From Escherichia phage EI-SP-GF: a stretch of DNA of 64,000 nucleotides. A program made the position numbers and the translations under genes. The stretch lies in sequence record OR992645.1. One strand, written 5' to 3'. The notes beneath the pieces were generated by a model. That model worked only from the letters and a program-made list of their open reading frames with translations, had not been told where the DNA came from and ran no database searches. This document shows positions 25,782-30,208 of this stretch, one piece after another; the stretch's first letter is position 1; each line of letters opens with the position of its first letter.

Positions 25782-26336
25782 ATGAAATACTTTGTAACAA
25801 GCGACACACACTTTCTCCACCAGCGGGTCATGGAGTTTGATTCATGTCAAAAACACAGATCTCAGTATGATCACAATCTTGACAGTATGAATGCGGGAAT
25901 CATCGCCGAATGGAACTCTGTTGTGTCACCTGCAGACACTGTGTTCCACTTGGGAGATATTGCGTGCACTAATGATAAGAATATCAACAACTTACTTCCA
26001 GATATTCTAAATATGTTGAACGGACATATTATTCTTGTTCGTGGCAACCATGACACAAGGACGACTGTCAGAATTATGAAAGAGTTCGGTCATGAGGTTG
26101 TAGATTATTACGAGCTTCGCCACAACAAGAATTTGATCTGTATGAGCCATTACCAATTTGCAAAGTGGAACAGAAATCCTCACGGATCAGTCCAACTGTT
26201 CGGTCATGCTCACGGAACCACACAACAGTTGTTTGGCAGGCAGCTTGATGTCGGTTGGGATGTGTGGGGGAGACTCTTACCATTAGAAGAGGCATACCGT
26301 ATTGCAATGAGTTTTGCTATTGACAGCGGGGAGTAA
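25782..26336 (+). CDS. calcineurin-like metallophosphoesterase
   Basis: Motifs SDTHF, LGDIA, VRGNHD; start moved to ATG 25782 (GAGGAA RBS) directly after kinase stop. Confidence 0.65.
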   Translation: MKYFVTSDTHFLHQRVMEFDSCQKHRSQYDHNLDSMNAGIIAEWNSVVSPADTVFHLGDIACTNDKNINNLLPDILNMLNGHIILVRGNHDTRTTVRIMKEFGHEVVDYYELRHNKNLICMSHYQFAKWNRNPHGSVQLFGHAHGTTQQLFGRQLDVGWDVWGRLLPLEEAYRIAMSFAIDSGE

Positions 26337-26383
26337 TCCCTGCTATTTTAAAGAAAATTGCCACACAAGGAGAATCAGGAGAT

Positions 26384-26734
26384 ATGAAAGATGGGGATAA
26401 GCTGCTATATCTTAAAGTCCCCCTTGAAATACTGTCTATGTCAAAAGTTTTGAATGACACAACTGGAGAGGTTGTTGTTCTTGACTTGTATGACAAGATC
26501 GTATACTGCTACCTGCACAACTGGTATAAGCTTGGAGGAAATTCACGCTTCACACCCAGCACAAGGAAAATTGCAGCAGATGTTGGGATAAAGAAAACAA
26601 AAGCAGCAGCGTGCGTTAAAACTTTAGAGTGTGCAGGGGTGGTTGAAACATCCACACAAGGGAGAGGTAAAAGATGCACATTTTCCAAAGTTTTGCCACC
26701 AGAAGAAGTTATTCGGATGTCAACAACTGGTTAG
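26384..26734 (+). CDS. putative HTH DNA-binding protein (116 aa)
   Basis: STRKIAADVGIKKTKAAACVKTLECAGVVE resembles a winged-helix/HTH recognition segment. Confidence 0.4.
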   Translation: MKDGDKLLYLKVPLEILSMSKVLNDTTGEVVVLDLYDKIVYCYLHNWYKLGGNSRFTPSTRKIAADVGIKKTKAAACVKTLECAGVVETSTQGRGKRCTFSKVLPPEEVIRMSTTG

Positions 26735-26809
26735 ACCAGTAAAAACTTAAATATCTGTACTATAAGGATTCGTATGTTTTATGTTCGCTCTAGAATAGAG
26801 GTCAGTAAC

Positions 26810-26890
26810 TGTCCGTGATACGGACACTACTGTCCGTCACGCGGACACATCTGCCCGTAATACGGACACTAACTGTCCGTGATACGGACA
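26810..26890. repeat. four tandem 17-bp palindromic operator-like sites (TGTCCG-N5-CGGACA)
   Basis: Copies at 26810-26826, 26831-26847, 26853-26869, 26874-26890; copies 1 and 4 identical, 2 and 3 slightly degenerate; centre-to-centre spacing 21-22 bp. Confidence 0.65.
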
Positions 26891-27395
26891 CATAAAGAAT
26901 ATAACTAAAATAACTAAATAATAAAAAATAAAAGATCTAGTACTTATGGTACTAAAGTACATATACTTAACTTATGTAGAATATACTAGATCCTAAGTAC
27001 CATGTTTTAAATTTATTACTTACTATAGGTAGTGTCGGCCCTTCATTGGCACTCGCCTACGAGGGGCGAGATGCCGGGCCTCCATAGTGCACACAATAAC
27101 AGAAGTGCATACATGCAGGTCTGTTAACATGTGTGGGAGCGAAGCGATAGCGCAGGCCAAAGGCCGAGCACTAATGTGGACCACCGACGAAAGCTTGCCA
27201 GCGCCGTAAGGGGTCGGTTGAGAGCCTCCCGCGCGAGTTTGGATAAAGTTTATGTGTGGAAACTGACAAGAAGGCCCCTAAATCGCTCCACAGCTATATA
27301 AACTATACCAAGTAAGGCAATCGCACCAGTTTGATAGAAAAGCTCGTTACAAAGCGATACAGTTAGTTTTTCTATAACTTGAAGAGGAGTCTGCT

Positions 27396-27974
27396 ATGAG
27401 TTCACGCAAAGATGCCAGTGAAAAGATTGCAAAACGTTATCAGAATGAAGAACAGATGGAGAAAACTTTCAAGTGGAAGCCAGGTTTCCAGCGTAATCAT
27501 TCTAACGCTCGTGATCGTAAGCATCCTGATAAGTGGCTAACACCGCCAAATGATGGCATGCAGGTTGGTGATGAGAAGGAGCTATCACCTGGAAAAGATG
27601 GCAACTACATTCGCACTAAGGACGCTAGTCCAAAGGATGACAGCTATCTTGTAGATAAGGTTCTTAATGGTATTGATGTAGATGTTGACACTACACGGAA
27701 CTTTTTTCTTGGGTGGTATCGCACAGGTTTTTTCGACATCAAGGCCATTCGTCGTGTTTGTGATATTAAAAAGTCTGCATATGATGACGACTCGTTACAT
27801 CGCACACTGAGACAATATTCAGAAAGATATGGTCATCCGGTTATCACTCTTGACGATGTTAACGAAGTGATGTATCATGCAGAGGTTGTTGCAGGCAGAT
27901 TTGGTGATGCATATCTTGATATCCTTTCTGCAAACGATGAGGTAATGTTGAATAAGATTTACTACGAACGTTGA
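27396..27974 (+). CDS. hypothetical protein (192 aa)
   Basis: ORF track; GAGGAG RBS upstream. Confidence 0.45.
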   Translation: MSSRKDASEKIAKRYQNEEQMEKTFKWKPGFQRNHSNARDRKHPDKWLTPPNDGMQVGDEKELSPGKDGNYIRTKDASPKDDSYLVDKVLNGIDVDVDTTRNFFLGWYRTGFFDIKAIRRVCDIKKSAYDDDSLHRTLRQYSERYGHPVITLDDVNEVMYHAEVVAGRFGDAYLDILSANDEVMLNKIYYER

Positions 27975-28492: not shown

Positions 28493-28780
28493 GGTTGTTT
28501 TCGTGTATCATGATGAATATCCAATTTAAAGATGAGTTTGATGGCTTTATCTCCGGATGCTTTGAAACAGGGTTTGGAGAAGGCTGAGTTCCCCTTAGAG
28601 GGCTTGATAGTGCACCACACTTAAAATGGTAGGGGCAGCCAGCACATGACGATGTGACCCCAGCCAACCTGTAATAAGGTCGAGCCAGAGCGCGGTAATG
28701 GGTATCTGGTAACCCACTTGTTGGGTCTTGCTGGTCCAGGACGCTGGGCAAGTCGCAGGGAATACCACCCTGCGGCGAAC

Positions 28781-28809
28781 TTGACAATCAGTATTTGCCG
28801 TGATAAAAT
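28781..28809 (+). promoter_or_regulatory. sigma70-like promoter (TTGACA-N17-TAAAAT) overlapped by inverted repeat CGTGATA/TATCACG
   Basis: Hexamers at 28781-28786 and 28804-28809; palindrome arms flank the -10. Confidence 0.45.
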
Positions 28810-28837
28810 CCACCTATCACGTGATAATGGAGGAAAC

Positions 28838-29272: not shown

Positions 29273-29344
29273 GCCCTGTTAGCTTAGTGGATAAAGCAGC
29301 GGCCTTCTAAGCCGTTGACACTGGTTCGAGTCCAGTACGGGGTG
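29273..29344 (+). tRNA. tRNA-Arg(TCT)
   Basis: Hand-folded cloverleaf: acceptor GCCCTGT/ACGGGGT, D-stem GCTT/AAGC, anticodon loop CTTCTAA, T-loop TTCGAGT, encoded CCA. Confidence 0.8.
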
Positions 29345-29477
29345 CCAAGTTCTTTTTAATGTAGCTTACTTTAGCAGAGTAAATCTTCGGCAAGTGGCGG
29401 TAACCACTTTACCGATACCTCATAGTTAGTGGTTAGAACACTAGCTATTTTAAAAAGAATTTAAATATTAGTATTTA

Positions 29478-29562
29478 GGTGAGTTAATTCCGTAGGGGTA
29501 GCGGGGCAGACTGTAAATCTGTTATCATTGCGATTCGGGTGGTTCGACTCCATCACTCACCA
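29478..29562 (+). tRNA. tRNA-Tyr(GTA), type II with long variable arm
   Basis: Acceptor GGTGAGT/ACTCACC, anticodon loop CTGTAAA, T-loop TTCGACT, CCA encoded. Confidence 0.75.
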
Positions 29563-29680
29563 CCAAATTTATATTTTTAAATGCATAAATCATACAGATA
29601 ATGGCATTGATATTTATCGTCGTTTATACTAGTCACTAACTGCTCGAAAATCAGTGTCATTATCAGTATTGTTTATAAAA

Positions 29681-29768
29681 GAGGGTAGGGAGCAATGGTG
29701 CTCAAGCGGTCTTGAAAACCGTCCCGTTGAGGATGACTCGATGATGGTTCGATTCCATTATCCTCTGC
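29681..29768 (+). tRNA. tRNA-Ser(TGA), type II
   Basis: Acceptor AGAGGGT/ATCCTCT, anticodon loop CTTGAAA, long variable arm, T-loop TTCGATT, CCA encoded. Confidence 0.7.
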
Positions 29769-29868
29769 CATATTGTTGACCTTGTAATTAAGCGAAAGCC
29801 GGAAGCAGAACCGGATTATCAAATGTTACAGTCGTCATCGCCGACTAGCAACATGGTCAACATACTGA

Positions 29869-29965
29869 GCTAGGTAAGCCCTTTGGCAAGGGCGAGGATT
29901 TTTAATCCTGAAAATAGACGAGGTAGTCGTTGAATACATAGATGGTTCGATTCCATCACCTAGCA
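29869..29965 (+). pseudogene. aberrant tRNA-like element (possible degenerate tRNA-Lys(TTT)-like)
   Basis: Canonical acceptor GCTAGGT/ACCTAGC, D-arm GCCC/GGGC and T-arm GATGG-TTCGATT-CCATC, but 97 nt long with about 30 nt between anticodon-like hairpin and T-arm. Confidence 0.35.
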
Positions 29966-29971
29966 CCTTTT

Positions 29972-30044
29972 GCTGATGTAGCACAATTGGCAGTGCAATT
30001 GATTTGTAATCAATAGGTTGCAGGTTCAAGTCCTGCCATCAGCA
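29972..30044 (+). tRNA. tRNA-Thr(TGT)
   Basis: Complete 73-nt cloverleaf: acceptor GCTGATG/CATCAGC, anticodon stem ATTGA/TCAAT with loop TTTGTAA, T-loop TTCAAGT, CCA encoded. Confidence 0.85.
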
Positions 30045-30048
30045 CCAT

Positions 30049-30120
30049 GGCCCTGTAGCTGGAAGGTTCAAGCAAGCGACTCATAATCGCCAGACGGTGG
30101 TTCAATTCCACCCAGGGCCA
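30049..30120 (+). tRNA. tRNA-Met(CAT) (elongator or Ile2-type)
   Basis: Acceptor GGCCCTG/CAGGGCC, anticodon loop CTCATAA, T-arm GGTGG-TTCAATT-CCACC; starts 1 nt after tRNA-Thr CCA. Confidence 0.8.
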
Positions 30121-30134
30121 CCAAATAATAAATA

Positions 30135-30208
30135 CTCCGCGTAGCTCAGCTTGGTAGAGCGCCTGATTTGGGATCAGGAGGTCGAGTGTTCGAATCACTC
30201 CGTGGAGA
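30135..30208 (+). tRNA. tRNA-Pro(TGG)
   Basis: Acceptor CTCCGCG/CGTGGAG (C1-G72 as in bacterial tRNA-Pro), D-arm AGCTCAGCTTGGTAGAGC, anticodon loop TTTGGGA, T-loop TTCGAAT. Confidence 0.85.

Follow-up and report, generated by a model that had tools for sequence, protein, structure and literature searches.

In phage lambda, the C-terminal domain of the initiator O recruits P and DnaB. Gene O also contains the lambda origin, in which four inverted-repeat iterons adjoin an AT-rich tract; O contacts the iterons with its N-terminal domain, and the origin is activated when it is transcribed (PMC7466680). The locus described here, from an rV5-like phage, resembles lambda ori in having four dyad-symmetric repeats about two helical turns apart, and an AT-rich tract that lies beside the iterons and distal to the DNA-binding domain. 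It differs in several respects. The lambda origin sits in the middle of gene O, whereas the array described here lies outside the gene, 75 nt past its stop; O has a C-terminal domain, whereas the 116-aa protein encoded next to the array lacks one; and the iteron sequences are unrelated. The phage itself also differs from lambda, being a lytic myovirus of 136–138 kb with its own helicase-primase.

In iteron plasmids, Rep monomers bind direct, non-palindromic iterons, and DnaA boxes are common in the origins. Like this locus with its candidate initiator, the systems RK2 oriV/TrfA, F/RepE, and P1/RepA combine iterons with winged-helix proteins and with AT-rich DNA for unwinding that contains 13-mer-like repeats; among their initiators, RepE has two winged-helix domains, WH1 and WH2 (PMC4980987). 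Unlike the origins served by RepA, RepE, pi, and TrfA, the locus combines a protein with one winged helix, palindromic sites, and no DnaA box. The origin of rV5-like phages has so far been unmapped, and the rV5 genome paper gave skew shifts only (PMC3606486). Our literature searches found no paper on the array, on a Vequintavirus origin, or on the iteron motif. With moderate confidence, we predict from sequence comparison that the locus is a lambda-style, iteron-type replication origin of Vequintavirus, with a stand-alone initiator domain bound to the array. New here would be a lambda-type iteron origin with a stand-alone DNA-binding domain, iterons outside the gene, and an added structured element.

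The window (the whole stretch of DNA that was analyzed, 64,000 nucleotides) derives from a member of Vequintavirus, the rV5-like myoviruses of E. coli with genomes of 130–143 kb. Its segment 26300–27400 is matched at 90–99.8% identity by 118 phage records, nearly all of them from Escherichia phages of this genus. Minus-strand genes, including Sir2 and an RNA ligase, extend up to 25263. On the plus strand, a polynucleotide kinase or ATPase gene, a metallophosphoesterase gene, and the 116-aa helix-turn-helix (HTH) gene lead into a stretch of 661 bp (26735–27395), beyond which lie a 192-aa gene, small genes, a tRNA cluster (29273–30208), spanins, and the large terminase. The 661-bp stretch is without a conserved ORF, and tiny ORFs are called there by some GenBank annotators. 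The array starts at its left edge, at 26810 and thus 75 nt past the stop codon of the HTH gene (26732–26734), in agreement with the original prediction, which had placed it at the edge of an ORF-free region of about 660 bp. The features of the locus are as follows:

26320 to 26349, plus strand: sigma-70-like promoter, TTGACA-18-TATTTT with TG, upstream of the HTH gene
26384 to 26734, plus strand: rV5 ORF79; codes for the stand-alone winged-helix protein (116 aa) that is the candidate to bind the array
26785 to 26809, no strand: hypervariable 25-bp spacer just 5' of the array, an internal control for the local substitution rate
26810 to 26826, no strand: Iteron 1, TGTCCGTGATACGGACA, which is TGTCCG-TGATA-CGGACA
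26831 to 26847, no strand: Iteron 2, TGTCCGTCACGCGGACA, which is TGTCCG-TCACG-CGGACA
26852 to 26868, no strand: Iteron 3, TGCCCGTAATACGGACA, which is TGCCCG-TAATA-CGGACA, with one mismatch
26874 to 26890, no strand: Iteron 4, TGTCCGTGATACGGACA, which is TGTCCG-TGATA-CGGACA, adjoining the AT-rich tract
26891 to 27031, no strand: AT-rich tract, candidate DNA-unwinding element, about 80% AT, with two GATC sites and several short GTAC palindromes
26925 to 26937, minus strand: oriC 13-mer match GATCTTTTATTTT, the sole exact match in the window to GATCTnTTnTTTT
27031 to 27290, plus strand: GC-rich, hairpin-rich element directly after the AT-rich tract, with a hairpin at about 27037–27080 and a core at about 27176–27232
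27396 to 27974, plus strand: 192-aa gene (rV5 ORF77), the first gene downstream, PHROG 12226, function unknown, given for context only

Between 25 and 31 kb, an Rfam scan returned only tRNAs and a sub-threshold chance match to rli43 (26 bits against a cut-off of 100). A second GC-rich region, at 28535–28785, has no relation to the GC-rich element listed above, and its folding exceeds that of shuffles only weakly (z = −1.85). The sequence TGTAGAAT was considered as a phage promoter motif and rejected, as it showed no enrichment.

The array consists of four sites of the form TGTCCG-N5-CGGACA, each a 17-bp palindrome, within 26810–26890 and with start-to-start distances of 21, 21, and 22 bp. Their existence as four operator-like palindromes, reported in the original prediction, was confirmed by their coordinates, by shuffling, and by Tandem Repeats Finder: the mean motif count in 100 dinucleotide-preserving shuffles was 0.00, the 64-kb window has no copies beyond the array, and the array is the only tandem array of the window (period 21, 4.0 copies). 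The genome-wide motif search that had been proposed as a check was run on the complete rV5 genome (137,947 bp) with up to one mismatch allowed, and it recovered the homologous array only, leaving the array unique. The eight half-sites alternate between TGTCCG and CGGACA, with starts 11, 10, 11, 10, 11, 11, and 11 bp apart; this spacing is about one helical turn, and all eight therefore lie on the same face of the helix.

A further suggestion, that a related half-site (CGTGATA/TATCACG) overlaps a promoter at 28781–28809, was not borne out. CGTGATA corresponds to the variable N5 spacer within the array, and we rejected it as a half-site since this spacer varies both among sites and among phages. 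Its copies near the promoter are at 28799, 28815 (minus strand), and 28820. The copy at 28799 contributes to an extended −10 element that does not keep its "CG," and the palindrome TATCACGTGATA at 28815–28826 is invariant and has no TGTCCG half-site.

Conservation of the array was assessed in 11 Vequintavirus sequences, including metagenomic lineages whose homologue of the 116-aa protein is 87–91% identical. Varying columns made up 2 of 48 in the half-sites, 0 of 13 in the linkers, 7 of 20 in the N5 centers, and 20 of 25 in the 25 bp upstream. Both the N5 centers (Fisher, p = 0.0006) and the upstream DNA (p = 6e-13) differ from half-sites and linkers taken together. The two variable half-site columns are both T/C, at position 3 of a left half-site, and the change in phage JEP1 restores the consensus, so that its iteron 3 reads TGTCCG instead of TGCCCG. 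Judged by these alignments, the half-sites of the array are under selection, and the pattern is the signature of a dimeric protein that would contact the half-sites and not the center.

Homology suggests that the 116-aa protein is equivalent to the DNA-binding, N-terminal part of lambda-O-like replication initiators. Against Pfam, it scored 27.4 bits to DUF6945 and 24.5 bits to HTH_36, both just under the cut-offs, and gave no match to Phage_rep_O. It matches PHROG 12838, "replication initiation protein" (5e-80), a family that is essentially this protein, and it has weak matches to the N-termini of the longer initiator PHROGs 8102, 428, and 270. What was already known is the labeling by GenBank pipelines, in which the protein is named "replication initiation protein" or "transcriptional regulator," the latter in many records; PHROG and GenBank labels are annotations, not experiments. 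A further comparison came from a profile built on the winged-helix parts of 10 array-linked lineages (described below), with repeat-encoded residues left out. Searched against 329 ORF fragments of the window, this profile had a single match, the 116-aa ORF (E = 1.9e-7). The protein also aligns to residues 30–113 of a 288-aa plasmid O-like initiator (E = 3e-6). Searches with the 116-aa protein as a single query, by k-mer or full HMMER, returned almost solely relatives from the same genus and a few weak partial matches, and tblastn against phages found none outside Vequintavirus.

The protein is a single winged helix with no C-terminal domain, and no C-terminal helicase-recruiting domain or partner was found in the downstream DNA or in the 192-aa gene. 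The 192-aa protein itself has no Pfam match and does not resemble the C-terminal domains of array-linked initiators, and we therefore rejected the idea that it is such a domain split off; for the same lack of similarity, we also rejected the GC-rich region as the decayed remnant of one. Modeling the 116-aa protein with AlphaFold from its sequence alone gave no usable structure (mean pLDDT 39). Among PDB sequences, the family profile matched only generic winged-helix regulators, e.g., MarR, SlyA, and CodY. These PDB matches, the bare DNA-binding domain, and the missing Phage_rep_O match count against an origin.

The motif was also sought outside the genus. IMG/VR was scanned for two adjacent copies, and contigs other than those of Vequintavirus were kept. 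The scan yielded 17 such contigs with GC contents of 0.49–0.70 and 2–7 sites at 20–25 bp, representing about six protein lineages. In all 17, an ORF coding for an N-terminal winged helix either contains the array or has it at its 3' end. The layout is that of lambda, whose ori is likewise embedded in gene O (PMC7466680). Four of the six viral lineages match PHROG families annotated "replication initiation protein" or "replication initiation O-like." A bacterial scan with one genome per species gave 37 loci. Those in Actinoplanes, Treponema, Kiritimatiellae, and Parachlamydiaceae have the array within a winged-helix ORF, and many others, from high-GC Burkholderiales and Kofleriaceae, are intergenic pairs of sites with a spacing of exactly 20 bp and no adjacent initiator gene. 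Because such intergenic pairs exist, the motif alone is not diagnostic of an origin. The array-linked loci (labeled L010–L026, L039, L041, L042, L046, and L070) encode initiators with almost no cultured relatives.

Like the Vequintavirus locus, the array-linked O-like genes have identical half-sites, the N5 geometry, a 20–25-bp period, and a homologous N-terminal winged helix. They differ in that their arrays are translated within proteins of about 130–400 aa, and they come from very different host GC contents and phyla. The order of winged-helix domain, array, and local AT-rich dip is found in most array-linked lineages and in the window alike.

Sister genera have related proteins next to other repeats. 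A homologue of 105 aa, also a winged helix, is encoded by phages 4MG (Seunavirus; gp255), KpS8 (Mydovirus), and pEp_SNUABM_01 (Henunavirus); it matches the N-terminus of the 337-residue PHROG 8102 profile (6e-37). The repeats in these genera are two copies of AGCCTAT(A/G)CTCAAATTGA, 23 bp apart and followed by an AT-rich tract with AAGATCT repeats. Klebsiella phage K54_rec1 carries a different winged-helix gene (PHROG 8453) and repeats of the form TATTCC-N6-GGAATA at 24 bp, yet despite the changed gene and repeats its AT-rich tract is that of KpS8. Protein and repeats thus travel together, since both were exchanged in K54_rec1, as expected if the protein reads the repeats. The three genera resemble the window in having a stand-alone winged helix (105–119 aa) annotated as replication initiation protein, in the same subfamily, and in having repeats directly beside an AT-rich tract with GATC. 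Unlike the window, with its four repeats, they have two (two or three in K54_rec1), at 23–24 bp; the 4MG-type repeats are non-palindromic, and the gene points away from the repeats, which lie at its 5' end. As the repeats in the sister genera sit immediately 5' of the winged-helix start codon, autoregulation is also possible there. Overall, the proposed tie between the array and the neighboring HTH protein gained indirect support in three ways, from the homology of the protein to initiators, from the occurrence of the motif inside initiator genes, and from the swaps in sister genera.

Beyond the AT-rich tract, the GC-richest 250 bp of the window (27028–27277) coincide with a hairpin-rich element whose folding on either strand is far better than that of shuffled sequence (z = −3.6 and −4.1). 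It matches no Rfam family and is nearly invariant in the genus, with variation too small for covariation. Patches of the element with 82–84% identity occur in circular E. coli plasmids of 13.2–13.7 kb from at least five strains (NZ_CP020521.1, NZ_CP178698.1, NZ_CP035869.1, CP148565.1, and NZ_CP043822.1, the last deposited as a trimer). Compared with the plasmid, the phage element has five base pairs, in two helices, at which both partners differ, and no pair is broken, which argues for a conserved structure, as RNA or as single-stranded DNA. The element may serve in priming or helicase loading, act as a non-coding RNA, or mark the DNA for packaging.

The plasmids were read in detail in two cases, NZ_CP020521.1 and NZ_CP043822.1. 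Their repeats are 19-nt palindromes with a CGGTAA-ATA-TTACCG core (seven in NZ_CP020521.1, four of them consecutive at 23-bp spacing, followed by AT-rich repeats), and the order is palindromic repeats, AT-rich repeats, the homologue of the GC-rich element, and an O-like initiator of 288–303 aa. The plasmids thus resemble the phage locus in their non-coding layout, in the GC-rich element, and in the N-terminal domain of the initiator, and they differ in the repeat sequence, in having a full-length initiator downstream of the element, and in being autonomous small replicons. Since a plasmid replicon has the same three-part layout and an initiator of probably the same family, it supports the reading of the phage locus as an origin. 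Capsid, tape-measure, and baseplate proteins are also encoded by these plasmids. With rV5 ORF48 and ORF56, the baseplate protein and one encoded next to it share about 50% identity; a weaker match, to rV5 ORF49, covers part of the tape-measure protein. One possibility is that the plasmids are satellites of rV5-like phages; we did not find such a helper-satellite relationship described in the literature searched.

The tract between array and GC-rich element (26891–27031) is the AT-richest sequence at the 60-, 100-, and 140-bp scales, both in the 64-kb window and in the whole rV5 genome, and it is nearly invariant across Vequintavirus. Its match to the oriC 13-mer consensus, GATCTnTTnTTTT, compares with an expectation of about 0.08 exact matches per window in composition-preserving block shuffles. 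The match is absent from the Aya-like lineage, and because it is not kept in this lineage we give it little weight, as a weak lead. For comparison, oriC contains three 13-mers (PMC4980987). No DnaA box (TTWTNCACA) was found between 18.5 and 33.3 kb of the window. The cumulative GC skew of rV5 reaches its global minimum 1.45 kb from the array, where transcription diverges. Its nearness to the array speaks for an origin; the rV5 authors ascribed skew shifts to the direction of transcription and did not define an origin (PMC3606486). That the skew minimum coincides with the transcription switch, and that no DnaA box is nearby, also count against an origin. A second large ORF-free region of rV5, at 104.0–106.6 kb and outside the window, could hold another origin.

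At the position homologous to the promoter at 26320–26349, the rV5 GenBank record carries an annotated promoter, P76. A search between the HTH gene and the array turned up nothing terminator-like, and transcription from this promoter would traverse the HTH gene into the array. A sigma-70-type scan of both strands found no promoter-like site within 26735–27395, and the rV5 record annotates none there.

The original prediction had left open whether the sites serve a dimeric regulator or are the iterons of an origin. On the first reading, the array would be an operator and the 116-aa protein a cooperative repressor, or a roadblock, acting on read-through to 27396 onward or on a weak promoter in the AT-rich tract, with no role in replication. 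We regard this as unlikely. In its favor, the sites are GT...AC-type palindromes, as for many dimeric winged-helix regulators, and in the absence of a terminator between gene and array a roadblock would affect the downstream genes. The best PDB sequence matches (MarR, SlyA, and CodY) and the many GenBank records that say transcriptional regulator point the same way, as do the sister-genus repeats directly 5' of the winged-helix start codon and the two-site pairs of the motif in bacterial intergenic DNA. An operator, however, would be expected to lie at a promoter, and the promoter scan was empty at the array on either strand, in line with the rV5 annotation. Arrays of this kind in other phages are part of coding sequence, a place where operators do not lie, and a regulatory role would leave the AT-rich tract, the polarity, the initiator homology, and the plasmid replicon layout unexplained. 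An origin fits better than an operator because arrays elsewhere are intragenic, the polarity is conserved, the AT-rich tract is extreme, and the layout of the plasmid replicon is the same. The origin half of the original prediction is therefore the better fit, and a purely regulatory role is less well supported.

A second alternative accepts the origin and assigns the 116-aa protein a different part, that of a competitor for the iterons that limits initiation, or blocks related phages or satellites with the same iteron code, while another protein fires the origin. The missing C-terminal domain would suit such a role, full-length O-like initiators with the same type of site exist in other phages, and capsid-encoding, rV5-related plasmid elements are present in E. 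coli. Those plasmid-like elements, however, use a different repeat sequence, the window encodes no second homologous winged-helix protein, and stand-alone domains beside repeats have been kept in at least four genera of the subfamily, suggesting a core function. We consider a competitor improbable.

It is very improbable, in our view, that the array, the GC-rich element, or both form a pac site or another cis site for terminase or satellites. This alternative draws on the sharing of the GC-rich element with plasmids that encode rV5-like capsid, tape-measure, and baseplate proteins, on the tendency of satellites to copy the packaging signal of their helper, and on the large terminase gene about 4.4 kb downstream. 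Against it, the array itself is absent from those plasmids, arrays of the same motif elsewhere sit in initiator genes, the adjacent protein is initiator-like and not small-terminase-like, and no terminase gene adjoins the locus. Finally, a functionless recent tandem duplication, which the original prediction had named as part of the outcome that would refute it, is scarcely credible even though the repeats are tandem and alike: neutrality is ruled out because half-sites and linkers are conserved while N5 and upstream positions vary, the four copies differing in their spacers yet keeping their half-sites in 11 of 11 Vequintavirus sequences next to upstream DNA saturated with changes, and the motif and its geometry recur in unrelated phages.

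Returning to the iteron-type origin, it is from the anatomy and conservation of the array, the homology of the protein, the recurrence of the motif in initiator genes, the joint swapping of protein and repeats, and the plasmid layout that we infer origin activity and its steps, from binding and unwinding to helicase loading. The four 17-bp palindromes would be bound by dimers of the 116-aa protein, all on the same side of the DNA, and these dimers would build up a wrapped complex resembling the O-some. The wrapped complex would strain and open the adjoining 140-bp, 80% AT tract, at which a helicase could then be loaded, either the phage helicase-primase (the homologue of rV5 ORF230) or the host enzyme. 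As happens at lambda ori, activation of the array may be aided by read-through transcription from the promoter at 26320–26349. The GC-rich hairpin element probably plays an accessory role in this module and could, for instance, signal priming or loading. Large lytic phages often rely heavily on recombination-driven replication, and this counts against the origin model.

A broader reading, which we offer tentatively and hold with low confidence, is that TGTCCG-N5-CGGACA with a period of about 22 bp is an old iteron code, read by one clade of O-like winged helices across phages of many phyla. The rV5 initiator would have been reduced to its DNA-binding domain, and the origin would have gained a GC-rich element in common with the capsid-encoding plasmids of 13.2–13.7 kb, which may be Vequintavirus satellites that tap the replication or packaging of a helper.

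Phages of the rV5 type are widely isolated and are used in therapy and biocontrol. If the locus is indeed their origin, it would offer a testable handle for phage engineering, for phage-derived replicons, and for the question of how a 137-kb lytic phage initiates replication via a bare DNA-binding domain. Identical iterons in initiator genes of distant phyla would provide a natural system in which to follow how initiator-origin specificity is conserved or exchanged, and the GC-rich element held in common with capsid-encoding plasmids points to a possible helper-satellite relationship.

The highest-GC 250 bp of the 64-kb window are those of the structured element that directly follows the AT-rich tract. 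The sequence of this GC-rich element is almost constant across the genus Vequintavirus, and the element shows strong structure, with no family in Rfam matched. Circular Escherichia coli plasmids of 13.2–13.7 kb carry patches of this element at 82–84% identity, and between the phage and plasmid copies five base pairs are altered on both sides while none is broken. Possible roles for the element are those of a priming or loading signal, a non-coding RNA, or a signal for packaging. The features of the window considered here are as follows.

26938–26954: palindrome TAGTAC-TTATG-GTACTA, with the 6-5-6 geometry of the iterons
26957–26970: palindrome AAGTA-CATA-TACTT, after the preceding one
27031–27290: GC-rich structured element, with a hairpin at ~27037–27080 and a core at ~27176–27232
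28535–28785: second GC-rich stretch, non-coding, upstream of the 28781 promoter
28815–28826: 12-bp palindrome TATCACGTGATA, invariant

The two short palindromes with GTAC cores lie within the AT-rich tract, where a second factor might recognize them. Near the strong promoter-like site at 28781–28809, which the original prediction had linked to the iterons, the palindrome TATCACGTGATA sits after the −10 and before the following gene's ribosome-binding site. Unrelated to the TGTCCG sites, this palindrome may act as an operator for a different factor. The stretch upstream of this promoter ranks second by GC among the non-coding DNA of the window, folds only weakly better than its shuffles (z = −1.85), and does not resemble the GC-rich element at 27031–27290.

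High-GC bacterial MAGs of Burkholderiales and Kofleriaceae also carry TGTCCG-N5-CGGACA between genes, as pairs or short runs with a spacing of exactly 20 bp and several per genome (loci L035–L071 of the motif scan; e.g., L043:1532–1568, L047:1017–1113, and L036:6348–6451). No initiator-like gene adjoins these intergenic sites, which could serve an unrelated regulator as operators or represent a dispersed repeat.

Window 26300–27400 is matched by 18 GenBank records titled “Campylobacter phage” (MG0656xx), at 97–98% identity among the matches listed. The GC-rich element is matched at 96.7% in CP057073.1, an E. coli “plasmid” whose 137.5 kb equal a Vequintavirus genome in size. Mislabeling or a carrier state probably explains these phage and plasmid records. 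Because three short-read metagenomic contigs from the same phage group (L027, L033, and L034) end within or just past the repeat array, this locus may be under-represented in assemblies.

Outside the window, a second region of phage rV5 and two of the plasmid records were considered.

rV5 104,014–106,617 (L076:4014–6617 in the rV5 section): ORF-free stretch
NZ_CP020521.1 (L079): whole plasmid record, 13,689 bp
NZ_CP043822.1 (L080): trimeric form of the plasmid unit, 39,610 bp

The rV5 stretch comprises 2.6 kb without an annotated ORF, on which transcription converges, and contains numerous short repeats, AT-rich patches, and one hairpin-rich motif of 49 nt (rV5 105,688–105,736), which has an 88% identical counterpart within the 13.7-kb plasmid's gene for the O-like initiator. 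The 2.6-kb stretch may be a second cis-acting region, e.g., another origin or a pac site. The 13.2–13.7-kb plasmids form a recurrent family (L079, L080, L081, and L082) encoding a major capsid protein, a tape-measure protein, a baseplate protein with 54% amino acid identity to rV5 ORF48, and the O-like initiator. Both plasmids examined in detail (NZ_CP020521.1 and NZ_CP043822.1) contain repeated 19-nt palindromes, and the former has AT-rich repeats as well. These plasmids look like plasmid-borne satellites or mini-phages, kin to the rV5-like phages.
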